A stretch of DNA of 48,078 nt from Gemmatimonadota bacterium (GTDB lineage Bacteria > Gemmatimonadota > Gemmatimonadetes > Longimicrobiales > Gaopeijiaceae): assembly GCA_050050315.1 (NCBI GenBank), contig JASFUL010000001.1, positions 1 through 48,078 of the forward strand, in the 5' to 3' direction. A model generated the notes under the pieces. It saw nothing but the letters and a program-made list of their open reading frames with translations. It made no database searches and was not told the origin of the DNA. The number at the start of each line of letters is the position of its first letter. The stretch's first letter is position 1. Made by a program: the position numbers and the translations under genes. This document shows positions 5,735 to 21,500 of the stretch, in pieces.

Positions 5735-5780
5735 TGGGACGCGCCGGCCCTCCGCCGCCCCCCGCCCCCCGCCAACGGAG

Positions 5781-6575: not shown

Positions 6576-6645
6576 GGCCACCGGGCCCCCCTCCCGCGGT
6601 CCGTCCGACCCGGACCGTCTCCGGGGCCCGCGACGGGGAGGCGTG

Positions 6646-7494
6646 ATGGCGGGGAAGGGGTCGGCGCCTCCGGCGACGCTGGGGGAGGTCCGCGAGCGGG
6701 CGGCGGGCGTGGGCCCGATCGTCCTCGCGGTCGTCGGCTCCGACGGCGGGAGCGCGGTCGAGGCCGCCCGGCGGGCGGCGGCCTCGGGGCTGGTCGAGCC
6801 CGTCTTCCTCCGCGATCCGGACGAGGCGGCGGGGCGGGCCGGCGCCGGGGAGATCGACGTCCTCCTCAAGGGGACGGTGCGCAGCGACCAGCTGCTCCGG
6901 GCGGTCCTGGATCGTGCTCACAGCCTCCGCACCGACCGGCTCCTCTCCGACGTACTGCTCTACGAGGACACGCTGTCTGGCCGGCGCCGCCTCGTGGGCG
7001 TCACCGACGGAGGCGTGACCGTGGCCCCGGACGGGGACCAGCTCCGCCAGATCGTCCTCAACGCCGTCGGCGTGTTCCACGCCCTGGGCTTCGCCGAGCC
7101 CAGGGTGGCCCTCCTGAGCGCCACCGAGGCGGTGAGCGAGTCCGTCCCCTCCACCGTCCGGGCCCGGGCGCTCGCGGACGAGGCCATCGGGGGCGGACTC
7201 GGGAGGTGCCACGTGCAGGGCCCCCTGGCGCTGGACAACGCGCTTCTCCCTTCGGCGGCCGAGGCCAAGGGGATCGTCGGGCCGGTGGCCGGTCGCGCCG
7301 ACGTGCTCGTCACCTCGGGGATCGAGGCCGGCAACATCCTCGGCAAGTCCGTGAAGTACTTCGCCGGCTCCGTCACGGGACACGTCGTCGTGGGCGCCCG
7401 GGTGCCCGTGCTCATCCCCTCCCGCGTCGAGAGCGTGGAGGACAAGCTCGCCAGCATCGCGCTGGGCGCGCTGGCGGCCCGGGGGATGCGGTGA
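6646..7494 (+). CDS. ptb: Phosphate butyryltransferase/acetyltransferase (PTA_PTB family)
   Basis: I take ATG 6646 as the internal start of track ORF 6478-7494. Ptb-like motifs are present (DVLLKGTVRSDQLLRAVL, VTDGGVTVAPD, VALLSATE, GPLALDNAL, AGRADVLVTSGIEAGNILGKS, GARVPVLIPSR). Confidence 0.85.
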   Translation: MAGKGSAPPATLGEVRERAAGVGPIVLAVVGSDGGSAVEAARRAAASGLVEPVFLRDPDEAAGRAGAGEIDVLLKGTVRSDQLLRAVLDRAHSLRTDRLLSDVLLYEDTLSGRRRLVGVTDGGVTVAPDGDQLRQIVLNAVGVFHALGFAEPRVALLSATEAVSESVPSTVRARALADEAIGGGLGRCHVQGPLALDNALLPSAAEAKGIVGPVAGRADVLVTSGIEAGNILGKSVKYFAGSVTGHVVVGARVPVLIPSRVESVEDKLASIALGALAARGMR

Positions 7495-8687
7495 GGCCGG
7501 GCGGGTCGACCGGCGCCGGCCCGGTGGGCGGGGCTCCCGGTCCGGCCGGCGCCGGTCCGGGCCGGTCCCCGCCCCGGGTGCTGGCCCTGAACCCGGGCTC
7601 GACGTCCACCAAGGTCGCCCTCTACCAGGGAGCCCGGGTGGCCTTCGAGACCACCGTGCGCCACTCCGACGACGACCTGGAGCCGTTCCGCGACCGTCCG
7701 GTCCTGGACCAGCTCGTCTGGCGGCTGGAGGCGGTGAGGGCGGCGCTGACGGCGGGGGGCGTCGACCTGGACGCGCTGGACGCCGTCGTCGGTCGGGGCG
7801 GCCTTCTGCGTCCCCTGGAGGGAGGCGTCTACCGGGTCGGCGAGGCCATGCTGGCCGAGCTGCGCGAGGCGCCCCGGGGCGAGCACGCGTCCAACCTGGG
7901 CGCCTTCCTGGCCGCCGGGATCGCCGCCCAGGTCCCGGGAGACCGCCCCGCGTTCGTCGTCGATCCGGTGAGCGTGGACGAGTGGGAGGACGTGGCCCGG
8001 CTCTCCGGACTCCAGGGGGTGGACCGTGAGTGCCTGTCCCACGCGCTCAACACGCGGGCCGTGGCGAGGCGGTACGCCGACGAGACGGGGAGCCCCTACG
8101 CGACGCTCCGGCTCGTGGTGGCGCACCTGGGGAGCGGGATCTCCGTCTCGGCCCACCGGGACGGACGCATGGTGGACGTCACGAACTCCATGCAGGAGGG
8201 AGCGTACTCGACCGAACGCGCCGGGACCGTGCCCTCCCTGGCTCTGGTCCTGAGGGCCATCCGGGAGGGATGGAGCGAGGAGGACGCGGTCCGTCACCTC
8301 TTCCGGGAGGGGGGGATGTTCTCGTACCTGGGGACCCGTGACCTGCGGGAGGCGCTGCGGCGCGCCGAGGCGGGCGACGCCCGGGCGGACCTGGTGGTGC
8401 GCGCGATGCTCCACCAGATCCGGAAGGACGTGGGGGCGATGGCCTCCGTGCTCGAGGGCCGGGTGGACGCGGTCCTGCTCACGGGCGGCATGGTGAAGGC
8501 CGGCCGGATCACCGACGGGCTGCGCGACACCCTCCGGTGGATCGGGCCGGTGGTGACCTACCCGGGGGAGAACGAGCTGCGCGCCCTGGCGGAGGGGGCG
8601 ATCCGCGCCCTCCTGGGGTCGGAGCCGGCGAGGGAGTACGCGCCCGCCGCTCAGCCCCCGGACGCTTCGCCCGGGCGCCGCGTGTAG
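7491..8687 (+). CDS. buk: Butyrate kinase
   Basis: ASKHA-fold butyrate kinase motifs are present (VLALNPGSTSTKVAL, GRGGLLRPLEGGVYRV, EHASNLGA, VVAHLGSGISVSAHRDGRMVDV, TERAGTVP, LLTGGM, YPGENELRALAEGA). GTG 7491 overlaps the ptb stop (GTGA). GTG 7578, directly before the conserved N-terminus, is an equally plausible start. Confidence 0.85.
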   Translation: MRPGGSTGAGPVGGAPGPAGAGPGRSPPRVLALNPGSTSTKVALYQGARVAFETTVRHSDDDLEPFRDRPVLDQLVWRLEAVRAALTAGGVDLDALDAVVGRGGLLRPLEGGVYRVGEAMLAELREAPRGEHASNLGAFLAAGIAAQVPGDRPAFVVDPVSVDEWEDVARLSGLQGVDRECLSHALNTRAVARRYADETGSPYATLRLVVAHLGSGISVSAHRDGRMVDVTNSMQEGAYSTERAGTVPSLALVLRAIREGWSEEDAVRHLFREGGMFSYLGTRDLREALRRAEAGDARADLVVRAMLHQIRKDVGAMASVLEGRVDAVLLTGGMVKAGRITDGLRDTLRWIGPVVTYPGENELRALAEGAIRALLGSEPAREYAPAAQPPDASPGRRV

Positions 8688-8956
8688 ATCGACTTGAAGC
8701 GCAGCGCGGCCACGAGGCGGCACGCCTCGCACTCTCCCGCCAGATCCTCGGGCCGCACCGGGTCGGCGCACACCTCGAAGCCGAGCTCGCGGTAGAGATC
8801 CATCGCCTCCTCCGCCCGCGCGGCGTCGGCGATGAAGCGCCGCGTCCAGCCCGCCGCGATGCGCTCGGGGTCGGGCCGGATGGCCGCCTCGGAGACCGCC
8901 CGGTGGGCCTCCAGGCGGACCAGCGGTCCCAGGGTGCGGGCGACGTCCTCGTCCAC
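8651..8956 (-). CDS. Hypothetical 101-aa protein, last gene of the benzoyl-CoA reductase operon
   Basis: GTG start with GGGGAGAG about 8 nt upstream, 21 nt after the stop of the preceding ATPase gene. Third-position GC is very high throughout. It has three Cys (EVC, CEAC). I recognise no family. Confidence 0.55.
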   Translation of the reverse strand: MDEDVARTLGPLVRLEAHRAVSEAAIRPDPERIAAGWTRRFIADAARAEEAMDLYRELGFEVCADPVRPEDLAGECEACRLVAALRFKSIYTRRPGEASGG

Positions 8957-8977
8957 GACCGCGCTCTCCCCGGCCGG

Positions 8978-9823
8978 CTACGCCGTCGCGACCCGGCCGG
9001 TGGCCGCGTCCGGATCCGCCCGGAGCTTGCGCAGCCGCTGCCGGGCCAGCCACGCGGCGCCCAGAGCCGGGGTGAACTGGACCATGTCGCCCTCCGGTAC
9101 GTTCACCTCGGCCCCCAGCTCCCGGCGGATCACGTCGATCATCCGCTCGAAGCGGAGGATCCCGCCGATGAGCGTGAACTCGGGCTCCATCCGCACCCGC
9201 TTCATGAGCTGCACGGAACGCCCCACCAGTGACACGATGGCGCCGTGCATGATGTCCGCGGGGGCCGCCCCCTGGGAGAGGTGGTTGATGACCTCGGACT
9301 CGGCGAAGACGGCGCACACCCCCGAGATCGACACGGGCTCCTTGGAGGTCGCCACGAGCGGGCCGATCTCCTCGGTCTCGTAGCCCATGTAGCGGGCCGT
9401 CTTCTCGAGGAACGCCCCCGTTCCGGCGGCGCACTTGTCGTTCAGCCTGAAGGACTGCACCCGGGCCCCCTCGCCCAGGCGTGTGGCCTTCATGGTCTGT
9501 CCACCCACGTCCAGGATGGTCTCGGTCCCGGGGAAGAGGAGCGAGGCCCCCCGGGCCGCCGCGGTGAGGGAGGTGACGTGGAGGTCGCACGTCTCCACCT
9601 GGTGCCGGCCGAAGCCCGTGGCGATGGCGTACGCCACGTCGTCGAGGTCGAGGCCGGCTCCCGAGACGGCGGCCTCGAGCGCCTGCTGGCCCACCTCGGC
9701 CAGACGGAAGCCCGTCGGCTTCATGCACCGCCCCACCACCTCGCCGTCGCCGTCCATCACGAGCGCCTTGGTGTACGTCGACCCCACGTCGATCCCGGCC
9801 GTGTGCGTCCCGTGCGCGTTCAC
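8978..9823 (-). CDS. Benzoyl-CoA reductase ATPase subunit (BcrA/BzdQ-like; BcrAD_BadFG/HgdC family)
   Basis: I take the internal GTG 9823, which overlaps the upstream stop (GTGA). Motifs: [61 protein letters not shown]. Confidence 0.85.
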
Positions 9824-10662
9824 GCGGCACCTCCCGGGCCGGCGTCCGATCCGGCGCGTCCCGCGGAGGCCGGGACGCGGGCGGCGAGGACGTGGTCCAG
9901 CGCGAAGAGCGCGGCGCCCAGGGCCCCCATGTAGTGGGACTCCTCGCTCACGTTGAGCGGCACGCCCAGGCGTTCCTGGAGGGTCGCGATCATCGCCGTG
10001 TTGCGGGCCACCCCGCCGGTGAACGTGACCTCCTCCTCGACGCCGACCCGACGCAGCAGCCCCGCCGAGCGCGCCGCGATGGACTGGTGCACGCCCAGCA
10101 GGATGTCCTCGATCTTCTTGCCCTTGCCGAGCCAGGACAGCACTTCCGACTCCGCGAACACCGTGCACGTCGTGCTGATCTTGACCGGCCGCTCGCCCTC
10201 CAGCGCGGTGGGTCCGAGCCGGTCGAGGGGGATGTCGAGGGCCCTCGAGGCGGCCCCGAGGAAGCGTCCCGTGCCCGCGGCGCACTTGTCGTTCATGCAG
10301 AAGTCGAGGATCTCGCCCGCGGGCGACACGGAGATGGCCTTGGTGTCCTGGCCCCCCATGTCCACGACCGTGCGCGTGCGGGGGAACATGTGGGCCGCGC
10401 CCCGGCCGTGGCAGGAGATCTCGGTCACCTGGGTGTTGCCGAAAGTCACCTTGTAGCGGCCGTAGCCCGTGCCCACGACGTATTCGACCTCCTCCTCCTG
10501 GAGGTTCCCGGTCCGCAGCGCCTCCTCGAAGGCGCTCTCCGCCGCCCGGATCACGTTGGCGCCGGTCTCCACCAGGGCCCGGGCCGTGATGGCCCGATCC
10601 TCCCCGATGATCACGGCCTTGGTCTGGGTCGATCCGACGTCGACGCCGGCTGCGTATGCCAT
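9820..10662 (-). CDS. Benzoyl-CoA reductase ATPase subunit (BcrD/BzdP-like; HgdC-type activase fold)
   Basis: 280 aa with GGGAGGAG upstream of the ATG. Motifs: [80 protein letters not shown]. Confidence 0.85.
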
Positions 10663-10708
10663 CTCTCTCCTCCCTCGAACGACGGGTGTGACGCGGGTGC
10701 TCGTGGCG

Positions 10709-12061
10709 TTACGGCGACGGGGCCTCTCCGGCCGCGGTGGGGCCGGGGGCCTCCGCCGTGGCCGGACGCACCGCGGCCTGGGCGCGGCGGGACGCCAGAC
10801 CCTCGAAGAACGCGTCGATCCGGTTCTTCAGCTGGGCCTCCGACACGACGCGGCGGTCCATCATGTCCGACTCGATGAAGAGCGACGCCACGTCCCCCCG
10901 GTCCATGAGGGCCCGCCGGTTGTCGGCGAGCCCCGTGGAGACCGTGCGGCAGCTCTTGATCGGGTGGTAGACGACGCCGTCGGCCGAGAAATCGTCCAGC
11001 ATGGCGAGGAGGGCGTCGGTCTGGAAGAACATGCTGTCCATGGCGTCGCGGACGCTGAGCAGCAGACCCTCGGCCAGGCTCTCCAGGGGTCGCTCCAGGT
11101 CGTACTGGAAGCCCGCGTTCGTGCCTCCCGACGCGAACCACAGATAGGTCGAGTTCACGAACGCGCCGCCCCACTCCGCGAAGAGCTCGCCGAAGCGCCG
11201 GAAGATCGGGTAGCAGGGGACACCTACGAAGATCAGCCGGTACAGCTCCTCCGTGAGGGTCCCGATCCCGTGGTCGCGCTTGTACTCCATCTCCTCGACC
11301 AGCTCCTCGAAGTACGCCGCCCCCTCGGGACTCCCCCGCAGGGTGTTGGCCACGCCCAGGTAGATCGTGCCGTCGGTGAGTGCGTTGAAGAGCGCCGGGA
11401 CGGCCCGGTTGAGCTCGAGGACGCGCTTCCAGCAGCGGCTCATGGTGTTGGCGTGTTCCATCGACTCCCGGAGCCGGTCGATGTCGAAGGCCGTTCCGCT
11501 CACGTCCTCGAGGACCGGGATCAGCTCGCGGAGCTGGGCCAGCACGTACCGCCGGTCGTTCTCGAAGTCCGGGTGCCCCGGCCCGGGGTGGAGCCCGGCC
11601 TGCCGGCTGCCCGGCACGTCGAGGGTGAAGGTCGGGGCGCCGTGCATGCGCTCCCAGATCTCCGCCCACTTGATGTAGGTGTTGCAGGCGTTGGTGTTGA
11701 CGGCGATCGCGGGCGGGGGGACGCGGCCCATGGGCAGCCTCCCCCCCCGGAGCTGGGTCGCCACGTCGGCCTTCACGTACCCGCAGATGTCGGGAGAGTA
11801 GCCGTAGTCCTCGGCCTCGTTCAGGTACTCGTGCGCCACGTGGCGCACCGCCGTCTGGAGCGAGTTGATCTCGGGGAAGACCACGGGCAGGTCGAAGCAG
11901 CGGATGAGCTCCGCCAGGCTGCCCATGACGAAGACGTACGCCCCTCCCCCGCCTTCCTCGGCGGTGCGGGTGAGGTCTGCGAACCACTCCCGGAAGAGCC
12001 GCGCCCCTTCGGCGTTTCCCCTTCCCACGAGGTCCGTCGTGGTCGCTGTCGTTCCACCCAT
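10709..12061 (-). CDS. Benzoyl-CoA reductase subunit B-like (BcrB/BadE/BzdO; 2-hydroxyacyl-CoA dehydratase family)
   Basis: 450 aa. HgdB/BcrB-type features are present ([60 protein letters not shown]). It is a paralogue of the preceding gene. Confidence 0.85.
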
Positions 12062-12125
12062 CGGTGTCCCCCCGGTCGGTCGAGCGTCGGGGCCGCCGGC
12101 GCGCCGGCGGCTCGCGCGACGCGTC

Positions 12126-13298
12126 TCAGTCGAACATCAGGTTCTCGACGAAGGTCTCGAGCTGGATCTCGAGGTGGTCGAAGCTCGTCATGTTCTCCTC
12201 GAACTCGCTGACGAAGTACGGCACCCCGGCGTCGTCCAGGCTCCGCGTGTACGTCACCTGCTCCTCGAGCCCGGGCTCGCACATCTTGGCGGCGGTGACC
12301 ACGGCCGCCTCGGCGCCGGACGCCCGGACGCGCTCGAGCAACATGGCCTCCTTGGGCTTGCGGAGGTCGTGCTGGACCGGCGAGTAGCTGGAGCTCTCGA
12401 GATACGCCGTGGCCAGGGCCAGCAGGGGATCGTCGGCGTCGACGGGCACGTCCTCCAGGATCCAGCGCATCCCGATCATGAGGTCGTCGTCCACGACGTA
12501 GCAGGAGCGCGAGATCGCCCGGATCAGGTCCAGGGGCGGCTGCTCGCAGAAGCCCCCCTCGAAGACGACGCGAATCCGGTCGAGCCGGCGGGCGTCGCGG
12601 GCCTCGACGAGGGGGAGCGCCGTAGCCAGGAGCTCGTTGTGCTCCTCCCGCGGGACGAGGCCCCCGACCGCCGTGAGGACGTACGCCTCGTCGGCGGGGA
12701 GCAGCCACGGCGTGTCCCGCCGTATGCGGTACAGCTCGCGCAGGAGCGCGCGGTTCCGGTTGTACACGCCGAGGGAGCGGCGCAGCCCCTCGTCCGTGAC
12801 CTCGCCTCCGGTGGCCTCCTCCACGGTGCGACGGAGGCGGTCGTACTCGCCCCGGAGGTACGTCGGGGCCGAGGGCGAGTTGGCGTTCTGCGGGAGGTAG
12901 AGGATCTGGCAGGGGTACTCGAAGTTGCGCCCGAAGATACCCGCCAGGTTCCGGGCGGCGTCGCAGATGGGGTGCGTCACGAACAGGTCGAGCTCCACCC
13001 GGCCGCTCAGCGCCAGCTCCAGCGAGGTCTTGAGGATGCTGCAGAGGTAGGAGCCGAAGTGGGAGTCGGCCCGCGTGGGCTCCAGGGGCGCTCCGCGCAA
13101 GCGGAAGGGCAGGGCTCCCGCGGCGTGGACGATCTCCTCGGGGAAGTACACCTGGAAGTGTCCCACCACCGCGCCTCCCGCCTCCCGCCAGCGCCGCACG
13201 GTGGGGAAGTCCATGTCCTCCAGCAGCTCCCGGCAGGCGCCGAGGAGTCCCTCCAGGTCCCGGTCCCTCCACTCCGGGAAGACCTCCGGGGCGCTCAT
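12126..13298 (-). CDS. Benzoyl-CoA reductase subunit C-like (BcrC/BadD/BzdN; 2-hydroxyacyl-CoA dehydratase family)
   Basis: I take the internal ATG 13298, which overlaps the stop of the upstream crotonase (ATGA). 390 aa. Motifs: VVGHFQVYFPEEIVHAAGALPF, SYLCSILK, HPICDAARNL, VTAAKMCEPGLEE. Confidence 0.85.
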   Translation of the reverse strand: MSAPEVFPEWRDRDLEGLLGACRELLEDMDFPTVRRWREAGGAVVGHFQVYFPEEIVHAAGALPFRLRGAPLEPTRADSHFGSYLCSILKTSLELALSGRVELDLFVTHPICDAARNLAGIFGRNFEYPCQILYLPQNANSPSAPTYLRGEYDRLRRTVEEATGGEVTDEGLRRSLGVYNRNRALLRELYRIRRDTPWLLPADEAYVLTAVGGLVPREEHNELLATALPLVEARDARRLDRIRVVFEGGFCEQPPLDLIRAISRSCYVVDDDLMIGMRWILEDVPVDADDPLLALATAYLESSSYSPVQHDLRKPKEAMLLERVRASGAEAAVVTAAKMCEPGLEEQVTYTRSLDDAGVPYFVSEFEENMTSFDHLEIQLETFVENLMFD

Positions 13299-14050
13299 CG
13301 GTCGCTCCACTCGGGAGAGCGCTTCTCGACGAACGCCTTCAGCCCCTCCACCGCGTCGGCCGTCTGCATGAGCTCCTCCTGGTAGATCCTGGCGGCCCGG
13401 TCGAGGGCCTCGTCGAGGCCGGGGGCCGCGGCCCGCAGGGCCTTTTTCGTGGCCCGGAGCGACGCCCCGCTGTGACGGGCGATCCGTCCCGCCACCGCCC
13501 GGGCCCGAGCCTCGACCTGGTCGTCGGGCACGACCTCCCGGACCAGCCCCACGTCGAGCGCGGCGCCGGCGTCGAGGGGGTCGCCGGTGAACAGGAGCGC
13601 GGCGGCCGGGCCCGGCGCCACCATGCGGGGGAGGAAGGCGCACGCGGCCGGCGGGAGGACGCCCAGGACGATCTCGGGGACGCCCAGCACCGCTCCTTCG
13701 CCCGCGATCAGCAGGTCGGCGCAGGTGGCGAGCTCGAACCCACCCCCGAGACAGCGCCCGCGCACGGCCGCGACCACCGGGAGGGGGAAGTGGTGGAGGG
13801 CCCGCACGGTGTCCATGAACTCGGGGATCATCCGCTCGTGCTCCGGGGGGAGGTGCTCCTCCACGGACGCGCCGGCGGAGAAGTGCTTCCCCTCGGCCCG
13901 CAGCACCAGGACGCGGAGCCCGGGATCGGCCGCCAGGGCCGCGAGCTCCTCGCGGATCCGCCCCATCACGTCCCGCGTGAGGATGTTCAGGGGCGGGGCG
14001 TCCAGCACCAGCTCGCCGACGCCGCGCTCCACGTTGCTCGTCACGCTCAT
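13295..14050 (-). CDS. Enoyl-CoA hydratase/isomerase family, probable cyclohexa-1,5-dienecarbonyl-CoA hydratase (Dch/BzdW-like)
   Basis: 251 aa with a crotonase fold (VLVLRAEGKHFSAGASVEEH, VAAVRGRCLGGGFELATCADL). AGGAGG lies upstream of the ATG. The Dch assignment rests on context within the BCR/had/oah cluster. Confidence 0.8.
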   Translation of the reverse strand: MSVTSNVERGVGELVLDAPPLNILTRDVMGRIREELAALAADPGLRVLVLRAEGKHFSAGASVEEHLPPEHERMIPEFMDTVRALHHFPLPVVAAVRGRCLGGGFELATCADLLIAGEGAVLGVPEIVLGVLPPAACAFLPRMVAPGPAAALLFTGDPLDAGAALDVGLVREVVPDDQVEARARAVAGRIARHSGASLRATKKALRAAAPGLDEALDRAARIYQEELMQTADAVEGLKAFVEKRSPEWSDR

Positions 14051-14078
14051 CTCGTCCTCCTTCCTCCGTACGTCCTCG

Positions 14079-14825
14079 TCACATGCGCTGCCCGCCGTCC
14101 ACCCGCAGCACCTCCCCCGTCACGTGGCGGGCTCCCTCGGAGCACAGGAACGCGACCGCGGCCGCCACGTCCGACGGCTCGGCCAGCCGCCCGAGCACCG
14201 TCTCCGCCACGGCGGCCCGGACGAACTCCTCGGGCAGGGACGCGGTCATCTTCGTCCGGACCATCCCGGGGGCCACCACGTTGACGGTCACCCCCTTCGG
14301 CCCGAGCTCCCGGGCCAGCGTCTTCGCGAGCCCGATCATGCCGGCCTTGGACGCCGCGTAGTTGGCCTGCCCGAACTTGCCCCGGAGCCCGTTGATGGAG
14401 CTCACGGCGACGACGCGCCCCCATTCCGCCTCCCGCATCAAGGGGGCGACGGCCCGGGCCCACGCGAAGAACCCCTTGAGGTTCACGTCCAGCACGTCGT
14501 CCCACTCGGCCTCGCTCATCTTCCACGAGGCGCGGTCGCGGGCGATCCCCGCGTTGCTCACCAGGACATCGAGCCGTCCCAGCCTCTCCCGGACCTCCCG
14601 GACCACCGCGCCGGCCCGGTCGAGGTCCCGGACGTCGGCCACGTGCGTCGTGCAGCGGTGGCCCATCGCCTCGATCCCGCTGGCCACGTCCCGCATCCCC
14701 TCTACCAACCGATCCACCAGCGCCACGTCGCATCCCTCCGCCGCCAGGGCCCGCGCGACCTCGGCGCCGATACCCCCGCCGGCCCCCGTCACGAGGGCGA
14801 CCCTTCCCGCCAGTCCGGAGTCCAC
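14079..14825 (-). CDS. Short-chain dehydrogenase/reductase (FabG-like 3-oxo/3-hydroxyacyl reductase)
   Basis: GTG start with GGGAGAG upstream. Motifs: TGAGGGIG Rossmann, NAGI, and the catalytic S..YAASK motif (SSINGLRGKFGQANYAASKAG). Confidence 0.85.
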   Translation of the reverse strand: MDSGLAGRVALVTGAGGGIGAEVARALAAEGCDVALVDRLVEGMRDVASGIEAMGHRCTTHVADVRDLDRAGAVVREVRERLGRLDVLVSNAGIARDRASWKMSEAEWDDVLDVNLKGFFAWARAVAPLMREAEWGRVVAVSSINGLRGKFGQANYAASKAGMIGLAKTLARELGPKGVTVNVVAPGMVRTKMTASLPEEFVRAAVAETVLGRLAEPSDVAAAVAFLCSEGARHVTGEVLRVDGGQRM

Positions 14826-14848
14826 CGTCGCTCTCCCGGCTCCGGGCC

Positions 14849-16036
14849 TCAGCCGCCGTCACCCGTGCGGTACTGGGGCGAGACGGCGCGGACGAGGTCG
14901 TCGTTCCACGGGTGCCCGTCGGCCAGCATCTGGCGGAGCTTCACGAAGTCCACCTCCCGGTCGCCCTTGGGGCCCTCGTTGAAGGCCCGGAAGCCGGCCA
15001 GCGCCTCGGTCATCATGTTGAGCGACAGCCACTCCCGGTTGGAGACGTTGTTGACGTCCCAGATCCACTGCTTGTGCTTGCGCAGGGAGTTGACGGTCTT
15101 GGAGGTGCAGTCGGGCATCAGCATGAGGATGCGGGTGCAGAGCGCGTCCACCGCCTCGTCCAGGCGCGACAGGTCGGTCTCGCAGCGCGCCCGGAGCGCC
15201 TTCGCCTCGTCCCGGTCGGCGCCGGTCTTGAGGTCGCCGTACACGACCTTGCCGAAATCGTCGAGGAAGCGGTCGGTGACCACCGTGGGGTCCGGGATCC
15301 ACCGGCCGTCGAGCTTGAGTGCGGGCACGACCTCGTTGAGCAGGCCGTAGTGCAGGGCCTTGTGGGCGGACCACATGTCGCAGAGGACGCCGCTCTCCAT
15401 GGCCCGGGAGAAGCCGACGTACAGCGGCAGGAAGTCGGTGGAGCCTCCGTCCGGGGCCGACCCGTGCTTCGGTCCGGCCTGGCCGAAGCGCGCCGTATCC
15501 ACCGCGACGGAGAAGTCGCACGCCATTCCGATCTCCTGGCCCCCGGCGATCCGCATGCCGTTGACCCGGTTGATCACCGGCTTGTCGCACCGCAGGATGG
15601 CGTCGATCATGTCGTTGAAGAGCCGCATGTACTGCTTGTATTCCTGCGGATTGCCGGCGTAGTACTCGGCGTACTCCTTGGTATTGCCCCCGGTGCAGAA
15701 GGCCCGGTCTCCCACCGCCGTGAAGACGACGGTCACCACGCGCCGGTCCATGCTCGCCTGCCGGAAGGCCAGGATCACCTCCTTCACCGCGTCGGTGGTG
15801 TAGCTGTTGTACTGGGAGGGGTTGTTCAGCGCGATCCAGGCGTTGTAGAGCCCTTCGGCCTCGTTTCCGGCGGGATCGAGGACGGGCCTCAGCTCGTAGA
15901 GGATCTCCGTGAAGCCCTCGGTCGAGCGCTCGGGAACGAGGGTGTGGCTGCGGAGGTGGGGGGGCGGCCCGGCAGGTGGTTCCTGGGACCGGGGCGTCCC
16001 TTCGGTGCGGGTGTCGACGGTCTCGGTCGTGGTCAT
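14849..16036 (-). CDS. oah: 6-oxocyclohex-1-ene-1-carbonyl-CoA hydrolase-like ring-opening enzyme (Oah/BamA/BzdY-like)
   Basis: 395 aa. The crotonase core (VVFTAVGDRAFCTGGN, INRVNGMRIAGGQEIGMACDFSV) carries the long C-terminal extension typical of Oah/BamA (TSKTVNSLRKHKQWIWD..NREWLSLNMMTEALAGFRAFNEG). Confidence 0.85.
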   Translation of the reverse strand: MTTTETVDTRTEGTPRSQEPPAGPPPHLRSHTLVPERSTEGFTEILYELRPVLDPAGNEAEGLYNAWIALNNPSQYNSYTTDAVKEVILAFRQASMDRRVVTVVFTAVGDRAFCTGGNTKEYAEYYAGNPQEYKQYMRLFNDMIDAILRCDKPVINRVNGMRIAGGQEIGMACDFSVAVDTARFGQAGPKHGSAPDGGSTDFLPLYVGFSRAMESGVLCDMWSAHKALHYGLLNEVVPALKLDGRWIPDPTVVTDRFLDDFGKVVYGDLKTGADRDEAKALRARCETDLSRLDEAVDALCTRILMLMPDCTSKTVNSLRKHKQWIWDVNNVSNREWLSLNMMTEALAGFRAFNEGPKGDREVDFVKLRQMLADGHPWNDDLVRAVSPQYRTGDGG

Positions 16037-16124
16037 GGTCTCTCTCCGCTGTCTCGATGTGCCGCCCGGGGCGGCGGTCCGGCTCCATTGCGGTCCCGGG
16101 CGTCCGGCCCGGGACGTTCGTGCG

Positions 16125-17174
16125 TCAGGCTTCGGGTACGAGGATGGCCCGCCGCTCCAGCTCGTGGTCGGCCACCCGGCGGAGGATCTCCGCGCCCTCG
16201 TCGAGGGAATGTCGCTCGACGAAGGGCTCCAGCGTGATGCGTCCGTCGGTCACCATCCGCAGGGCGTCGGGATACAGATCGGGCAGGCATCCCCACGTGC
16301 CCTGGGCGGTCGCGTCCAGCGCCATCAGGTTGCTCAGGCGCACCCCCACCTTCGCCAGCGTGAAGCCCACGACCATCAGCGTGGACGCGTGGGTCAGCAG
16401 GCCCCACGCGGTGGTCTGGCCCTCGGGGTGGCCCGAGCACTCGAAGATCTTCCAGCGGGTCGACGGACACCCGCCTTCGAAGGCGGCCTTGCGGACCGCC
16501 GCCTTGATACTCCGGAAGTCCAGCGCGGACGCGTTCAGCGTGACGTTCGCCCCCCGGTCCTCCACGGCCGCGAGGCGGTCGGGCTCGACGTCGATGGCGA
16601 CGACGTGGGCGCCGAGGGCCCGGGCGATCTGGACGGCGTGGGTGCCCACGCCTCCGACGCCCACCACCACGGCGAGCTCGCCCGGGCCGAGGCCGCTCCG
16701 GACGATCGCCTGGTAGGGCGTGGTCACCGCGTCGGCCACGACCGAGAGATCGGCCAGGTCGTAGCCCCCCAGGTCGTCCACCGGGCAGAGTCCCCGGGCG
16801 GGGACGACGACGCACTCCGCGAAGCCTCCGTCGATGTCGTTGCCCGGCATGACCTGGGCCTGGCACGCGTTGCCCCGTCCCGCGCGACACAGGTCGCACT
16901 CCCCGCACGGGATTACGGCGGGGACGATCACCTCCCGTCCGACGAGGGTCTCGGCCCCAGGGCCCGCCGCGTCGACGGTCCCCGCGATCTCGTGGCCGAG
17001 GGTGAGGGGAAGGTCCTTCCGGGTGGGTACCCCGTCCTTCCAGAAACCCACGTCCGTGTGGCACACACCACAGCCCGCGACCTTCACGCGGACCTGGTCT
17101 TCCCCCGGCTCGGGCACCGGCACGTCCCGGAGCTCGAGGGGCTCGCCCTGGGCAACGAGCTGGAGGGCCTTCAT
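16125..17174 (-). CDS. had: Zn-dependent MDR alcohol dehydrogenase, probable 6-hydroxycyclohex-1-ene-1-carbonyl-CoA dehydrogenase (Had/BzdX-like)
   Basis: I take the internal ATG 17174 (MKALQLV). Motifs: CGVCHTD, GHEIAG, CGECDLCRAGRGNAC, VVVGVGGVGTHAVQIA. It is adjacent to oah. Confidence 0.85.
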   Translation of the reverse strand: MKALQLVAQGEPLELRDVPVPEPGEDQVRVKVAGCGVCHTDVGFWKDGVPTRKDLPLTLGHEIAGTVDAAGPGAETLVGREVIVPAVIPCGECDLCRAGRGNACQAQVMPGNDIDGGFAECVVVPARGLCPVDDLGGYDLADLSVVADAVTTPYQAIVRSGLGPGELAVVVGVGGVGTHAVQIARALGAHVVAIDVEPDRLAAVEDRGANVTLNASALDFRSIKAAVRKAAFEGGCPSTRWKIFECSGHPEGQTTAWGLLTHASTLMVVGFTLAKVGVRLSNLMALDATAQGTWGCLPDLYPDALRMVTDGRITLEPFVERHSLDEGAEILRRVADHELERRAILVPEA

Positions 17175-17247
17175 GGTCGGCTCCGTGTGTTGAGGCCGTC
17201 CGTTCGGGGACGGCGTCCGGCGGCCCCCACGGGCCGCGTGTCCCCGC

Positions 17248-17859
17248 TCAGGCGGCGAGTCCACCGAGCAGGTGTTCGGCGAAGCGCCGGCCCAGCTCGT
17301 CGGGCTCCGTGCTCCCTCCGGGCCGGTACCAGCGCGCGATCCAGTTGATGGCTCCCAGGATCACGAAGACGGAGGTCTTCGGGTCCACCTTCCGGAAGAC
17401 CCCCGACTCCGTGCCTCGCGCGATGATCCCGCGCAGCGTGTGCTCGTATCTATCGCGACCCGCGATGACCTCCGCCCGCCGCTCGGGCGGCAGGCTCGGG
17501 ACCTCGAACGCCAGGGGGGACCCCTCCAGCGTGTCGGTCATGACGCGGACGTGCTCGCGGATGATGTAGGTGAGGCGCTCGAGGGGATCCTCGCAGCACT
17601 GCTCGGACTCCTCGATGATGCGGTCCAGCTCGGCCAGGGACTCCCGGTGGCACGCGTAGAGGATGGAGTCCTTGTCGGGGAAGTAGTGGTAGAGGGCGGT
17701 CTTCTGGATGCCCAGGCGGCCCGCGATGTCGTCGAGCGTCGTGGCGTGCCAGCCCTGCTCCCGCACGGCCTCGAGGGCCGCGTGCAGGATCTCACGCCGG
17801 CGCCTGGCGCGCTTCTCGAGAACGCGGGGGGAAAGGGTGGCCGACGTGTCGTCGATCAA
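17248..17859 (-). CDS. TetR/AcrR-family transcriptional regulator
   Basis: HTH motif: REILHAALEAVREQGWHATTLDDIAGRLGIQKTALYHYFPDKDSIL. I prefer TTG 17859 (GGAGG 6 nt upstream). The upstream extension to ATG 17919 has AT-rich third positions and contains the operator palindrome. Confidence 0.85.
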   Translation of the reverse strand: MIDDTSATLSPRVLEKRARRRREILHAALEAVREQGWHATTLDDIAGRLGIQKTALYHYFPDKDSILYACHRESLAELDRIIEESEQCCEDPLERLTYIIREHVRVMTDTLEGSPLAFEVPSLPPERRAEVIAGRDRYEHTLRGIIARGTESGVFRKVDPKTSVFVILGAINWIARWYRPGGSTEPDELGRRFAEHLLGGLAA

Positions 17860-17886
17860 ACGGACACCTCCGAGATTTGAAGGTGT

Positions 17887-17901
17887 GTTCAATATTTGAA
17901 C
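17887..17901. promoter_or_regulatory. Perfect 6-3-6 palindrome GTTCAA-TAT-TTGAAC, putative TetR operator/promoter
   Basis: It lies in the only AT-rich patch of the region, about 28 nt upstream of the TetR TTG start. An extra TTGAA half-site sits at 17877-17881. Confidence 0.45.
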
Positions 17902-17985
17902 GACGGGTAGAATTCGCAAGGTCGGGGGGAAGAGTGGCGGGTCGCGCCTACCGCAGCGCCGGGGTCCGGTGGGGCCGGTGGCGGG

Positions 17986-18591
17986 TCAGAAGGAGAAGTG
18001 GACCGGGCCCACGCCCCACTCGTGGCCGACCGTGAACGCGGCCAGGTTCGCGTCGACGGTGCCGGCGGGGACCGTCTCCGCGATGGCGCCGCGCCACGCG
18101 TGGAGGGGCAGCTCCACGTGGTGCGAGACGACGCCGAGGAGCGCCACGCCGGCGAGCTTCGGGTTGCCGAGCTCGGTGGCCGTCCGCAGGGCCGGGAAGA
18201 GCTCGAGGTCGATGTCCCGGGCCCGCGCCAGCCCCTCGAGGTCGTCGGGATAGTCGGCGCTCCGCAGCGCCTCGATCAGCGGCGTGATCCGTTCGTCCCC
18301 GACGACGGCGAGCCCCCCCGGCCGGAGGAGGTCGAGGTGACGGGCGGCCTCGAGGCGCTCGAACGCCACCAGGAGGTCGGCCTCACCCTCGGGCACCACG
18401 GGCGCCAGCTCGTCCGCGCCCCAGCGTACGGCCGTCACCACCGTCCCGCCCCGCTGGGACATCCCGTGCACCTCCGACGTCACCACCGCCCGGCCCGCCC
18501 GTCGGGCGGCCTCGGCGAGGATCCGCGTCGAGAGGACCGATCCCTGTCCCCCCACTCCCGCCAGAACGATGTTCGTGGTCTGCCGGCTCAT
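17986..18591 (-). CDS. iorB: Indolepyruvate/2-oxoacid:ferredoxin oxidoreductase beta (gamma-domain) subunit
   Basis: This is the last 201 aa of track ORF 17986-20997. The ATG at 18591 overlaps the upstream stop (ATGA). Motif: NIVLAGVGGQGSVLSTRILAEAA..EVHGMSQRGG. Confidence 0.85.
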   Translation of the reverse strand: MSRQTTNIVLAGVGGQGSVLSTRILAEAARRAGRAVVTSEVHGMSQRGGTVVTAVRWGADELAPVVPEGEADLLVAFERLEAARHLDLLRPGGLAVVGDERITPLIEALRSADYPDDLEGLARARDIDLELFPALRTATELGNPKLAGVALLGVVSHHVELPLHAWRGAIAETVPAGTVDANLAAFTVGHEWGVGPVHFSF

Positions 18592-21500
18592 CCTCGTCCC
18601 TCCCTGCGTGCCAGGTGTTGCGACGCCAGCTCGGCCGTCCGACGGCCGGTGGCGATCGCCTGGGTGACCGTGCCGTGTCCGAAGGCGGCGTCTCCGCACG
18701 CGAAGACGCCGGGACGGGACGTGGCCCCGGTGAAGTTGGTGGAGATCCTTCCGTTGCTCCGGATGCCGGTGCCGTCGAGGAGGGAGAGGTCCGCGGCTTC
18801 GCCGACCGCCAGGATCACGGAGTCGAAGGGCTCGCCGGTCTCGCTTCCCCCGACGGTCTCGGCCCGCCGGCGTCCGTCCGCCTCGGCCGCCCCCTGTCGC
18901 ATCGCGACGGTCACGATCTCGGCGATGCCGCCGTCGGGTCGCGCGCGCACGCGGACGGGCTGTCGCTGGAAGAGGAAGCGCACGCCTTCCCGGCGTGCCT
19001 CGTCGACCTCCTCCGGGATGGCCGGCATCTCCTCTTCCGTCCGCCGGTAGACGACGACCGCCTCGGCGCCGAGGCGGACCGCCGCGCGGGCGCAGTCGAC
19101 CGCCGTGTTCCCACCCCCGACGATCGCCACCCGGCGACCGATCTCCGGTCGGAGGCCGGCGTTGAAGCGATCGAGGAAGGTGAGGCCCGGAACCACCGCG
19201 TCGCCCACCGACCGCGCCCCCTCCAGGTCGACCACGCGGGAGCGATGATGGCCGACGGCCAGGACCACGGCCCCGTAGCGGGCCTCGAGCTCCTGGAGCG
19301 TCACGTCCTCGCCGACCCGCACGCCACACCGGAAGTCGACGCCGATGGCGCGGAACCGCGCCAGCTCGCCGTCGAGCACCTCCCGGGCCAGGCGGAAGCC
19401 GGGGATCCCCACGCGCAGCATCCCCCCGGGCTCGTCGGCCGACTCGAACACCGTGACCCGCCAGCCGGCCCGGCGGAGCGTCCACGCCGCCGAGAGCCCC
19501 GCCGGTCCGGAGCCCACCACGGCGGCCTCGCCGTCGCGTTCCTCGACGGGTCCGAGGCCCTCCGGGGGGCGCTCGAGGGCCAGGTCGCCGAGCCAGCGCT
19601 CGACCGCCCGCACCGAGATCCGGTCGTCCCGGTCGGCGGCGGGGAACCGATCCACGAGGGAGGGGTGCTCCTCCGCCCGCCGGGCTCCCTGGGGCCACCC
19701 GAGGGAGTTCACCTCCCGCTCGCAGGGGTGGGGACACACGCGGGCGGCCACCGCCGGGAGGGGGTTGGACCGGAGCAGCAGGCGCAGCGCCTCGTCGACC
19801 CGATCCCGGTCCACGAGCTCGAGGAGGAGCGGGACGTCGATGCCCGCGTTGCAGTCCGAGCACACCTGCTGGCACTGGGTGCAGCCGATGCACAGCAGCG
19901 GGCTCACGTGCATGCGCCCGTCGAGCTGCTCGAGCGCCGGGCATCCCAGCTCGGAGCAGGCGAGACATTCGACGCACCGCTCGGGGTCGATCGTCACCGC
20001 CGCTCCGATGCGGAGCTTCTCTTCGAGGACGCACGCCGACCGGGCGACGAGGACCGAGGCCGCGTCGGTCGCGGCGGCCCGGTCCAGGGCTCGCCAGGTC
20101 CCCATCAGGTCGTAGGCGTCGACGCGCTCGACGTCCTCCACGCCCAGGGCGCGGGCGAGCCCCTCGATGTCCACCGCAGGGGCCTCGCCCCCCGAGAGCC
20201 GGTGACCGGTGCCCGGGTGGTCCTGGTGGCCGGTCATGGCCGTCGTGCGGTTGTCCATCACCACCGTGGTGGCCGACCCCTCGTTGTACACGACGTCGAG
20301 GAGGCCCGTGATGCCCGAGTGGTAGAACGTGGAGTCGCCGATCACCGAGACCACCGGCGGGCCGTCCCCCCGCAGCACGTGTGTCATCCCGTGGGCCATC
20401 CCGATGGAGGCGCCCATGCACAGGCACGCGTCCATGGCGTCCAGCGGTGGGAGCGCCCCCAGCGTGTAGCAGCCGATGTCCCCCGAGACGATGGCGCCCA
20501 GACGATGGAGCCCGTGGAAGACGCCGCGATGGGCGCACCCGGGACAGAGGGCCGGGGCGCGCACCGGAAGGGTCGGCAGGGGCGCGGACGGAGCGGCCCG
20601 CGAGTGGGGGTCGGTGGACACCTCCCGGTCCGTACGCTCGCGGGCCCGTCGTGCGCGGCCGTTCCCCAGGAGCGCCTCGACCGACAGCTCGCCCCAGCGC
20701 GGCCACGTCCTCGGTTCGCATTCGACGCCGAGGGCGCGCAGCTGCTCTTCCAGGAAGGGCTCGAGCTCCTCGACCACCAGGACGCGACGCCCTTCCGCGA
20801 AGCGCAGGATGGCGTCGACGGGGAGCGGATAGCTCATCCCGAGCTTCAGCACCGGCGCTCCCGGAAACGCCTCGGCCGCGTACAGGAACGGCACCCCGGC
20901 CGTCACGATCCCGAAGTCCCTCCCCCGGCCTTCCCGCGTCTCGGCCCACGCCTCGGCCTCCGCTTCGAGGGCCGGCATCCTCTGCCCCTCGATCCAACGG
21001 TGCCGGAGACGCCCGTGGGCCGGCAGCACGACGTTCTTCACGCGGTCCTTCCGGTACGGCCGACGGGGGCCGTCCCGGCGCGGGTCGCGGCCCACGAGCC
21101 CCCTCCCGTGCGAGAGGCGCGTGGTGCTCCGCAGCAGCACGGGCGTGTCAAAGCGCTCCGAGAGGTCGAACGCGCGGCGCGTGAAGAGCCGGGCTTCCTC
21201 GGGGGTCGAGGGCTCCAGCAGGGGAAGCCGGGCGGCCCGGGCGAAGTGGCGGTTGTCCTGCTCGTTCTGGGACGAGTGCATCCCCGGGTCGTCGGCCGTC
21301 ACGACCACCAGACCGCCGTTCACCCCCATGTAGGACGCGCTGAAGAGGGGGTCGGCCGCGACGTTCAGCCCCACGTGCTTCATGGTGGCCAGGGCGCGGC
21401 CGCCCGCCAGCGACGCTCCCACGGCCACCTCGAGGGCCACCTTCTCGTTGGGTGACCACTCGCAGTACGGGCCCGCGTCGCCCCCGTCCCCGGGGCCCCC

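Follow-up and report, generated by a model that had tools for sequence, protein, structure and literature searches.

This locus raises the question of whether a cluster of genes on a Gemmatimonadota contig encodes an anaerobic route for reducing and opening the benzoyl-CoA ring and, if so, which kind of reductase it uses. Class I reductases fall into three recognised types, BCR, MBR and BZD (PMC11971306). An earlier note on this DNA had described ten co-directional genes on the minus strand, and a codon-usage gene caller together with ORF lists bore this out, placing the region at 8651-17901 of the window, that is, of the whole 48,078-nucleotide stretch analysed. The 'very short gaps or 4-nt overlaps' of that note were roughly right: the intergenic distances, in transcription order, are 73, 88, 23, 28, -16, 64, 46, -4 and 21 nt, and thus range from -16 to 88 nt, the 4-nt overlap being the one between the alpha and delta ATPase genes. 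Each of the nine larger genes is matched by HMMs (E-values 1e-15 to 1e-171) and has a GC3 above 0.88, far beyond chance. The cluster is flanked by genes for an IOR oxidoreductase (IorAB), phosphotransbutyrylase (Ptb) and butyrate kinase (Buk). We consider it very likely that these genes form an operon, controlled by TetR, that encodes the anaerobic central pathway via benzoyl-CoA, with an MBR-type reductase, in a member of the Gemmatimonadota related to Longimicrobiales.

The reductase genes are arranged gamma-beta-alpha-delta (C-B-A-D), the order also found in BcrCBAD of Thauera aromatica. For each of the four subunits, the best match is the solved 3-methylbenzoyl-CoA reductase (MBR) MbdN/O/Q/P (PDB 9g87/9gai), over the full length and at 53-71% identity. 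The gamma subunit (12126-13310, minus strand; 394 aa, HGD-D fold, MbdN/BcrC-like) aligns end to end with MbdN (9g87_B; 530.7 bits, 59% identity) and shares all 7 of its Cys with it, while the beta subunit (10709-12061, minus strand; 450 aa, HGD-D fold, MbdO/BcrB-like) matches MbdO (9g87_A; 504.2 bits, 53% identity) and has its three cluster Cys in common with it. The alpha ATPase (9820-10662, minus strand; 280 aa, MbdQ-like) matches MbdQ (9gai_D; 413 bits, 71% identity), and the delta ATPase (8978-9823, minus strand; 281 aa, MbdP-like) matches MbdP (9gai_C; 295.9 bits, 55% identity). Both ATPases carry the BcrAD_BadFG domain (PF01869; 207.6 bits for alpha, 177.3 bits for delta) and are small, as in MBR (about 270-280 aa in both systems). 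The gamma subunit is predicted to be the electron-transfer FeS subunit and the beta subunit the substrate-binding active-site subunit.

None of the four subunits reaches the curated cut-offs of the BcrABCD and BzdNOQ equivalog models. The BcrC (TIGR02263), BcrB, BcrA and BcrD models gave 258, 203, 204 and 127 bits against cut-offs of 421, 487, 578 and 313, and the alpha subunit, in which the long N-terminal portion of BcrA is missing, matches only positions 229-432 of that profile. Because the four subunits and the Dch-like protein lie below the equivalog cut-offs, the assignment rests on similarity to the MBR structures and not on an equivalog model; judged by that similarity, the reductase is class I and of MBR type (MbdONQP), not Bcr or Bzd. 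Genes for hydratase, dehydrogenase and hydrolase enzymes, together with a TetR-family regulator gene, are likewise part of the mbd cluster (PMC4424350). The two systems differ in their hosts, a beta-proteobacterium for MBR against Gemmatimonadota here, and in the tree a long branch separates the present clade from Thauera MbdO. Moreover, the Gemmatimonadota cluster lacks a clustered ferredoxin (MbdM), CoA ligase and ABC transporter, and in it a conserved 101-aa gene, possibly an extra one, comes after the delta subunit.

The enzymes encoded upstream of the reductase supply the steps that would follow it, and the pathway logic is that of BcrCBAD with Dch, Had and Oah. The gene at 16125-17174 (minus strand; Pfam ADH_N, ADH_zinc_N) matches the NCBIfam equivalog TIGR03201 (dearomat_had) over its full length with 464.9 bits (cut-off 338.65), which identifies its product by sequence as the Zn-dependent MDR enzyme 6-hydroxycyclohex-1-ene-1-carbonyl-CoA dehydrogenase (Had). 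The product of the gene at 14849-16036 (minus strand) passed the Oah/BamA model, TIGR03200 (dearomat_oah), with 569.6 bits against 464.45 in an alignment spanning positions 2-358 of the 360 in the profile, and is assigned as the ring-cleaving crotonase 6-oxocyclohex-1-ene-1-carbonyl-CoA hydrolase (Oah/BamA type). These two scores support what the earlier note had proposed, an ATP-dependent aryl-CoA ring reductase of class I accompanied by the Dch, Had and Oah steps; of the HMM check suggested there (benz_CoA_red, Dch, Had and Oah models), the Had and Oah parts held, whereas the Dch-like protein and the four reductase subunits remained below their cut-offs. For the Dch-like crotonase (13295-14050, minus strand), the top NCBIfam match is TIGR03189 (dienoyl_CoA_hyt; cut-off 292.5), with 183.2 bits. 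In 50 of 68 loci its gene immediately precedes that of the gamma subunit, and the protein is probably a divergent cyclohexa-1,5-diene-1-carbonyl-CoA hydratase. The FabG-like SDR (14079-14825, minus strand; Pfam adh_short) reaches about 250-270 bits with FabG and acetoacetyl-CoA reductase models, mostly below cut-offs; the only models that it passes, NF009466 and NF005559, describe broad subfamilies. Related loci retain this gene as part of the module, and in 15-18 of them an SCP-x-type thiolase and a DUF35/ChsH2 OB-fold protein come after it; its product may act in the lower pathway as a 3-hydroxypimelyl-CoA dehydrogenase. Domain searches of the 48-kb window found no lower-pathway thiolase or glutaryl-CoA dehydrogenase. 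Among its 41 called genes there is neither a ferredoxin nor an AMP-ligase domain; unlike in Bcr, the reductase genes are not followed by one for a ferredoxin, and the earlier statement that benzoate-CoA ligase and ferredoxin genes are absent is confirmed.

The residues that bind the clusters and substrate can be compared with those of BzdNOPQ from Aromatoleum sp. CIB (PDB 8s02; PMC11971306), an enzyme of the same family and architecture, in which the Cys ligands of BzdO, Tyr97, and His131 as the partner of the catalytic water have been assigned. In the beta subunit, Cys93, Cys126 and Cys371 align with BzdO Cys95, Cys128 and Cys380, and Tyr95 with Tyr97; E64, a conserved Glu within the motif FPEINSLQ, is probably the equivalent of Glu65. 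The position of BzdO His131 is occupied by Tyr129, and by Phe in Thauera MbdO. The motifs of the bridging cluster are present in the alpha ATPase as NDKC127AAGTG and TTC166TVFAE, and Cys131 and Cys170 of the delta ATPase lie within the same two motifs. Of the double-cubane [8Fe-9S] site of BzdN, only 3 Cys columns are kept in the gamma subunit and three are not conserved. The replaced His131 and the partial double-cubane site were counted against the main reading, as were the scores below the equivalog cut-offs and the ferredoxin, ligase and lower-pathway genes missing from the window.

The alternative that survives best, though it is clearly the less likely one, is a dearomatising reductase with another aryl-CoA substrate (e.g., 3-methyl-, halo- or hydroxy-benzoyl-CoA), whose substituted ring would be taken on by the downstream enzymes. 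This would suit the name of the nearest characterised relative, 3-methylbenzoyl-CoA reductase, the divergence of the Dch-like hydratase and the dissimilarity of position 129 to BzdO. However, Had and Oah pass equivalog models that were derived from the pathway for the unsubstituted ring, and neither the window nor most of the related loci contain a second reductase of Bcr or Bzd type, which would leave this enzyme as the organism's only ring reductase. In addition, the MBR of Thauera chlorobenzoica reduces benzoyl-CoA too.

Recent lateral acquisition of the cluster was also weighed. At least 563 stretches in a species-representative genome set encode relatives; the best 80 of these, which were kept for comparison, are 73-83% identical and belong to Gemmatimonadota, Eisenbacteria, Acidobacteriota, Chloroflexota and further groups, with the ten-gene set conserved in two arrangements. 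That beta subunits of different phyla are so similar, and that the Eisenbacteria, Acidobacteriota and Chloroflexota subclades nest among Gemmatimonadota sequences, indicates inter-phylum transfer at some point. A recent transfer into this genome is nevertheless improbable, since the G+C content (0.70-0.735) and codon usage of the cluster match the rest of the window, no mobile-element genes flank it, and the sequence from the window falls among other Longimicrobiales/Gemmatimonadota loci, one of which (L002) has the same neighbours (Ptb, Buk, IorAB). The host is a member of the Gemmatimonadota close to Longimicrobiales; the contig is not proteobacterial, as the earlier note had expected; rarity and recent lateral acquisition are not supported. 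The cluster is not rare: it is common among soil and sediment bacteria that have not been cultured and very widespread in Gemmatimonadota and other uncultured phyla, pipelines already label relatives bcr (JGI annotation 'benzoyl-CoA reductase subunit B'), and a MAG survey placed a Gemmatimonadota genome among degraders of lignin-derived aromatics (PMC11704145). Annotation by NCBI calls the homologues '2-hydroxyacyl-CoA dehydratase family protein'. To our knowledge, the pathway has yet to be characterised biochemically in these lineages, Gemmatimonadota included.

That NCBI label, the restriction of Pfam matches for the reductase subunits to HGD-D and BcrAD_BadFG, and the flanking IOR, phosphotransbutyrylase and butyrate kinase genes would fit a 2-hydroxyacyl-CoA dehydratase with its activator, serving amino-acid fermentation together with IorAB and Ptb-Buk. 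HadBC and HadI (2-hydroxyisocaproyl-CoA dehydratase and activator; PDB 3o3m, 4eht) belong to the same superfamily (BCR/HAD radical enzymes) and share the folds and cluster-binding Cys. We regard this reading as very improbable: the beta, gamma, alpha and delta subunits match MbdO/N/Q/P with 504/531/413/296 bits against 102/123/219/169 bits for HadB/HadC/HadI, Mbd scores being 2-5 times those to HadBC/HadI and BzdNO, which sets the subunits apart from dehydratases and activases. Furthermore, dehydratases have one homodimeric activator from a single gene, whereas two distinct ATPase paralogues occur here, and the genes are embedded among the Dch-like, Had and Oah genes of a ring-cleavage pathway. 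The Azoarcus bzdNOPQ type with C-B-D-A order, which the earlier note had favoured and to which the small ATPases (about 280 aa) and their BzdQ matches (185 and 128 bits) might point, is refuted, since the bzdN and bzdO models, whose cut-offs are about 450, give 87 and 93 bits, the BzdNO structure matches gamma and beta at about 90 bits, and the first ATPase is alpha and the second delta by identity to MbdQ and MbdP, an order different from that of bzd.

At the head of the MBR-type operon lies the gene for a TetR-family regulator (17248-17859, minus strand; 203 aa), which scores below cut-off with TetR-family models. A TTG start at 17859 is preferred to 17919 because a palindrome occupies 17877-17901 and relatives are ~204 aa long. 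In the PDB, 3vpr matches it best (114 bits); orthology to MbdR was rejected, as 4uds gave only 44 bits. Among the 52 loci whose upstream DNA extends far enough, 38 have the regulator at the head of the cluster; it is probably an acyl-CoA-responsive repressor of the operon. The composite palindrome, GTTCAA-N3-TTGAAC-N4-(G)TTCAA, forms an AT-rich island immediately upstream of the TetR start and is the sole match in the window (expected 0.08). Of 40 related loci, 29 carry it no more than 220 nt upstream of their TetR gene, compared with 15 matches in the remaining 724 kb of those loci. We propose it as the putative TetR operator and operon promoter region, through which the protein may repress transcription until an aryl-CoA inducer is bound.

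[quoted passage not shown] In beta, a three-cysteine [4Fe-4S] cluster beside the aromatic ring would convert benzoyl-CoA, and probably also methyl- or halo-substituted analogues, to the cyclic 1,5-dienoyl-CoA. The diene would be hydrated by the Dch-like crotonase, the 6-hydroxy compound oxidised by Had and the ring opened by Oah to 3-hydroxypimelyl-CoA, whose beta-oxidation the SDR may begin. The electron donor could involve the adjacent fused IorA-GltD/IorB oxidoreductase, a candidate for electron input or an accessory role.

The operon is mostly ordinary; the exception is the conserved small orf101 (8651-8956, minus strand), which encodes a 101-aa protein of unknown function. It is a real gene, given its 81 homologues and 897 clusters at 50% identity. 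The protein has no Pfam or NCBIfam family match, and its PDB sequence matches, weak and partial alignments to designed helical-repeat proteins, were taken as spurious. Its AF2 model has a mean pLDDT of 82.5, and Foldseek against the PDB returned nothing below E = 0.1. The core motif reads GWERRF...LY..LG(F/Y)EV...CxxC...IYTR, with D29, W37, R40, F41, R47, Y55, G59, C76, C79, Y91, T92 and R93 invariant. This protein with its invariant CxxC is likewise a candidate for electron input or an accessory role; its gene lies directly downstream of the delta ATPase (MbdP) gene in 64 of 67 loci, and it does so in distant family members too.

The window has a G+C content of 72% from end to end, and because of this spurious frames crowd the raw ORF lists. 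A gene caller whose codon-usage model had been trained on this same sequence resolved 41 genes, among them an unbroken minus-strand run that leads from an IorA-GltD fusion through IorB and a TetR regulator to a 101-aa ORF (orf101). All coordinates of this run are codon-usage calls on the minus strand. From TetR to orf101 the successive gaps are 73, 88, 23, 28, -16, 64, 46, -4 and 21 nt, the 4-nt overlap being that of the alpha and delta ATPase genes. The ten genes listed from TetR to orf101 in the earlier note are real and lie at the coordinates it gave, with one amendment: the TetR gene (17248-17859) stands, but its start had been placed at 17919, and a TTG at 17859 is the more likely one.

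Class I benzoyl-CoA reductases comprise three types, BCR, MBR (methylbenzoyl-CoA reductase, MbdONQP) and BZD (Fuchs et al. 2025, PMC11971306). In the window, two HGD-D-fold proteins of 394 aa (gamma, 12126-13310) and 450 aa (beta, 10709-12061) are encoded next to two different BcrAD_BadFG ATPases of 280 aa (alpha, 9820-10662) and 281 aa (delta, 8978-9823), the composition that marks class I. Pfam detects PF06050 twice, at 205.8 and 210.8 bits, and PF01869 twice, at 207.6 and 177.3 bits; HGD-D and BcrAD_BadFG are the only Pfam families matched by the four subunits. The decisive evidence for the subtype is a PDB sequence search, with the solved 3-methylbenzoyl-CoA reductase (9g87, 9gai, 9gal, 9gba) as reference; a literature search returned no paper on the 9g87 and 9gai structures. 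Each subunit aligns end to end with one chain of this enzyme: gamma with MbdN (531 bits, 59% identity), beta with MbdO (504 bits, 53%), alpha with MbdQ (413 bits, 71%) and delta with MbdP (296 bits, 55%), the runner-up matches to the four reaching 90-219 bits. Over their full length, all four are closer to MbdN, MbdO, MbdQ and MbdP than to the other solved or modelled types. Judged by these alignments, the reductase is of the known MBR type, of which it is a new and uncharacterised member.

On the four subunits the Thauera Bcr models outscore the Bzd models, all remaining well under cut-off. None of the BCR-type NCBIfam equivalogs (TIGR02259-02263) is passed: the scores are 204 against a cut-off of 578 for BcrA, 203 against 487 for BcrB, 258 against 421 for BcrC and 127 against 313 for BcrD, and the values for TIGR02260 (203 bits) and TIGR02263 (258 bits) are well under the Mbd scores in a comparison where Bcr and Bad are represented by HMMs alone. 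The bzdNOPQ subtype with a C-B-D-A order, which had been proposed from a first reading, is ruled out by both of its elements. The bzdN, bzdO and bzdQ models (TIGR03190, TIGR03191, TIGR03192) give 87, 93 and 185 bits against cut-offs of 454, 449 and 380, all four subunits fall below the Bcr and Bzd cut-offs, and the BzdNO chains in the PDB reach about 90 bits against 504 and 531 bits for MbdO and MbdN; the genes run gamma-beta-alpha-delta, with the MbdQ-like ATPase before the MbdP-like one, unlike the delta-before-alpha order of BZD. A 2-hydroxyacyl-CoA dehydratase with its activator, which would have overturned the assignment to class I, can be dismissed, since the 130 and 134 bits obtained with the HadB and HadC models fall far short of their cut-offs (700-750), the PDB chains match poorly for HadBC (102 and 123 bits; activator HadI, 219 and 169 bits), and two ATPase paralogues are present rather than one activator.

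The residues expected to bind metal clusters and substrate are largely retained. C127 and C166 of alpha and C131 and C170 of delta lie within the motifs NDKCAAGTG and CxVFAESE, both of which are common to MbdQ and MbdP in alignments; we take the two cysteines of each ATPase, as in the HgdC structure, to be ligands of the bridging [4Fe-4S] cluster. In the beta subunit, C93, C126, C371 and Y95 align with C95, C128, C380 and Y97 of BzdO, the BZD-type subunit of Aromatoleum sp. CIB, where Cys95, Cys128 and Cys380 are cluster ligands and Tyr97 binds the thioester (PMC11971306). E64 of beta is invariant among the relatives, and we infer that it is the equivalent of BzdO Glu65. The active site thus keeps the three-cysteine [4Fe-4S] set with its Tyr and Glu, but not His131, the residue that in BzdO forms a hydrogen bond to the catalytic water at the active-site cluster (PMC11971306). 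This position is tyrosine (residue 129) throughout the environmental clade and phenylalanine in Thauera MbdO, from which it would follow that the MBR type must position or activate the water otherwise than BzdO does. The gamma subunit keeps just three Cys columns of BzdN and has all seven cysteines in common with MbdN, so it should bind the same cluster as MbdN, whatever its kind. As a class I trait, the enzyme is predicted to reduce benzoyl-CoA by two electrons to the 1,5-dienoyl-CoA in an ATP-dependent reaction.

Genes for the subsequent ring cleavage precede the reductase. Oah (14849-16036) passes the TIGR03200 equivalog at 569.6 bits (cut-off 464.45; profile positions 2-358 of 360) and Had (16125-17174) passes TIGR03201 at 464.9 bits (cut-off 338.65; positions 3-349 of 349), and both are models named in the earlier note. 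For the crotonase (13295-14050), the dienoyl-CoA hydratase family TIGR03189 scores best of all families, yet at 183.2 bits against a cut-off of 292.5 the equivalog is not passed. The Dch assignment is made because the gene lies immediately 5' of the gamma gene in 50 of 68 loci. The SDR (14079-14825) is followed, in 15-18 related loci, many of them from Gemmatimonadota, by an SCP-x-type thiolase and a DUF35/ChsH2 (zinc-ribbon/OB-fold) protein inserted before Dch, a neighbourhood that supports its candidacy for the lower-pathway 3-hydroxypimelyl-CoA dehydrogenase. Members of the pair, which is absent from the window, are found for example in the related loci L030 (7114-8268) and L034 (6648-7100). 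With the Pfam and PDB matches and the Had and Oah equivalogs, the cluster is, on homology, a class I (ATP-dependent) reductase with ring cleavage, as first read.

The 120 best beta-subunit homologues share 77-84% identity, and the named ones belong to Longimicrobiales, Gemmatimonadales or Gemmatimonadota MAGs. NCBI labels such proteins '2-hydroxyacyl-CoA dehydratase family protein' and JGI 'benzoyl-CoA reductase subunit B'. When one genome per GTDB species was scanned, at least 563 stretches encoding relatives were found, so that the earlier note overestimated rarity; the best 80 of these were kept (73-83% identity), mostly Gemmatimonadota, the remainder being Eisenbacteria, Acidobacteriota (Blastocatellia, Terriglobia, Thermoanaerobaculia), Rokubacteria, Chloroflexota and one Acidimicrobiia MAG. 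In a neighbor-joining tree with Thauera MbdO as sole outgroup, the window clusters with two Longimicrobiales/Gemmatimonadota loci (L001 and L002), which together with the named homologues bears out a Gemmatimonadota host. A long branch lies between Thauera MbdO and the whole environmental clade, in which the sequences of the other phyla make up subclades nested among those of Gemmatimonadota. Because the G+C and codon usage of the cluster are those of its flanks and no mobile-element genes are adjacent to it, there is no sign of recent acquisition; old transfers between phyla are likely.

A conserved module emerged when the 80 loci were searched by tblastn with the window proteins and all neighbouring genes were then clustered. 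N-O-Q-P (gamma-beta-alpha-delta) occurs in essentially all of them, and TetR, Had, Oah and SDR are each found in 36-41 of the 52 loci with sufficient upstream DNA. Two arrangements occur: TetR-Had-Oah-SDR-Dch-NOQP-orf101, as in the window, and TetR-Oah-SDR-Dch-NOQP-orf101-Had, optionally followed by hemerythrin, as in locus L086. Three loci (e.g. L029, 367-2813) carry a second, more divergent MbdN-/MbdO-like pair about 7-8 kb 5' of the main cluster, which suggests paralogous catalytic modules. Six loci have a beta-eliminating lyase of the tyrosine phenol-lyase/tryptophanase family about 4 kb 3' of the reductase (e.g. L025, 12690-14045), and through this enzyme the breakdown of aromatic amino acids may be connected with the pathway.

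To our knowledge, work on class I benzoyl-CoA reductases has dealt almost entirely with a few denitrifying Proteobacteria, and our literature search returned no biochemical work on the pathway in the lineages found here. A mangrove MAG survey counts one Gemmatimonadota MAG among the organisms that degrade lignin-derived aromatics, a function for which it describes such lineages as 'rarely reported' (PMC11704145). In a 2024 study, reference genomes of the FCB superphylum lacked bcr, Longimicrobium terrae having just two other benzoyl-CoA pathway genes, and bcr was present in many Krumholzibacteriota MAGs (PMC10936416). A tight MBR-type clade with Dch, Had, Oah, SDR and TetR is standard in many uncultured soil and sediment Gemmatimonadota, Eisenbacteria, Acidobacteriota and Chloroflexota; with the cluster this common, these groups could be important anoxic sinks for lignin-derived and pollutant aromatics. 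The NCBIfam Bcr and Bzd equivalogs miss the MBR type, and a model for it is needed because NCBI labels the homologues as dehydratase-family proteins.

A constant companion of the reductase is orf101 (8651-8956), which lies directly 3' of the delta ATPase gene in 64 of the 67 loci with enough contig. A profile search retrieves 897 clusters at 50% identity; of the distant members looked up, three (L084, L085 and L086) have a BcrAD_BadFG ATPase gene upstream, and for a fourth (L081) the upstream fragment, when translated, closely resembles the C-terminus of the MbdP-like subunit of the window. A search for plasmid-borne MBR clusters as annotated proteobacterial references for orf101 returned distant dehydratase-family matches alone (25-28% identity). 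No family match is found in Pfam or NCBIfam, and weak, partial PDB sequence matches to designed helical-repeat proteins were taken as spurious. The AF2 model, a confident one (pLDDT 82.5), shows a long helix at the N-terminus and, after it, a small alpha/beta unit of three strands; Foldseek gives no PDB match to the model under E = 0.1. Among the invariant residues are those of a CxxC (C76, C79) and of the motifs GWERRF and IYTR. So tight a linkage points to orf101 as an accessory or partner of the reductase; an electron-transfer or protective function for it is speculative.

Proteobacterial class I systems have a ferredoxin gene clustered with the reductase. Neither a ferredoxin nor a CoA ligase gene occurs in the window, where the inventory of genes and domains agrees with the first reading that benzoate-CoA ligase and ferredoxin were missing, and neither recurs around the cluster among the 80 related loci. 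An invariant companion gene and an absent ferredoxin gene pose the question of how low-potential electrons reach the enzyme in this clade. A bolder proposal, which we consider improbable, is that orf101 is an unrecognised fifth component of a very widespread environmental class I ring-reductase clade, either as a dedicated redox partner or adaptor for electron entry, in place of the clustered ferredoxin and possibly fed by the neighbouring IorA-GltD fusion, or as a protection or repair factor for an oxygen-labile FeS enzyme. A hemerythrin (HHE) gene often follows orf101 or the Had-like gene, in 12 of the 80 loci (e.g. L082, 568-1209; L085, 2024-2578; L086, 11253-11702), the window having none; it may be an oxygen- or iron-sensing or repair partner of the oxygen-labile reductase.

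Upstream of the operon and co-directional with it lie IorB (17986-18591) and a 1017-aa fusion (18588-21641) of IorA, the alpha subunit of indolepyruvate:ferredoxin oxidoreductase, whose C-terminus continues into a GltD-like Fer4_20 (4Fe-4S) and a Pyr_redox_2 NAD(P)H/FAD domain. Homologous fusions, about 100 in number and about 1000 aa in length, occur in Longimicrobiales and Bipolaricaulota/Acetothermia, annotated just as 'IorA' or 'FAD-dependent oxidoreductase'; in the fused enzyme, 2-oxoacids may be oxidised with direct coupling to NAD(P)+. The 126-nt gap to TetR and a terminator-like hairpin where iorB ends suggest that iorAB is transcribed apart from the operon. By analogy with KGOR in Thauera, IorAB might regenerate a low-potential donor, but support for this is weak; an obligatory partnership is rejected, since IorAB lies within 10 kb of the cluster in just 8 of 80 loci. 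On the other side, plus-strand genes for phosphotransbutyrylase (Ptb, 6643-7494) and butyrate kinase (Buk, 7578-8687) converge with the operon, the 3' ends of the butyrate kinase gene and orf101 overlapping by 37 nt. In L002, the closest long relative, Ptb, Buk, IorB and IorA-GltD also lie near the reductase cluster, in rearranged order. Recurring flank genes of the related loci encode thiolase with DUF35, HMGL-like, TPR, hemerythrin, PaaX, isocitrate/isopropylmalate dehydrogenase, beta-eliminating lyase and transglutaminase-like proteins.

Just 5' of the TetR start, at 17877-17901, an AT-rich composite palindrome consists of GTTCAATATTTGAAC overlapping TTGAAGGTGTGTTCAA (plus strand). In 29 of 40 related loci the GTTCAA/TTGAAC motif recurs within 220 nt 5' of the TetR gene, whereas the remaining 724 kb of these loci hold 15 matches in all; the motif is a putative operator. 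The regulator's best PDB match is 3vpr, an acyl-CoA-responsive TetR type (114 bits). MbdR (4uds), the repressor of the mbd cluster, matches it at 44 bits, about fifteenth in rank, and recognises ATAC-N10-GTAT rather than a GTTCAA/TTGAAC-based motif; orthology with it was rejected on both counts. By analogy with MbdR (PMC4424350), the operon is likely to be autoregulated and induced by an aryl-CoA. A scan for sigma-70 promoters gave no match, and terminator-like matches are about as numerous as expected from shuffles.

Three further loci in the window deserve mention. Family III CoA-transferases activate benzoate in some anaerobes, and one is encoded at 42480-43673 (plus strand, 410 bits), about 25 kb from the operon, where it could stand in for the absent benzoate-CoA ligase. 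Divergent from iorA, AmmeMemoRadiSam genes (21839-24718, plus strand) encode a Memo-like protein B, the radical SAM enzyme of the system (627 bits) and another protein with a radical SAM domain. At 5342-6197 (plus strand), a gene for a CrcB fluoride channel and the DUF190 gene after it form an ordinary fluoride-resistance pair.
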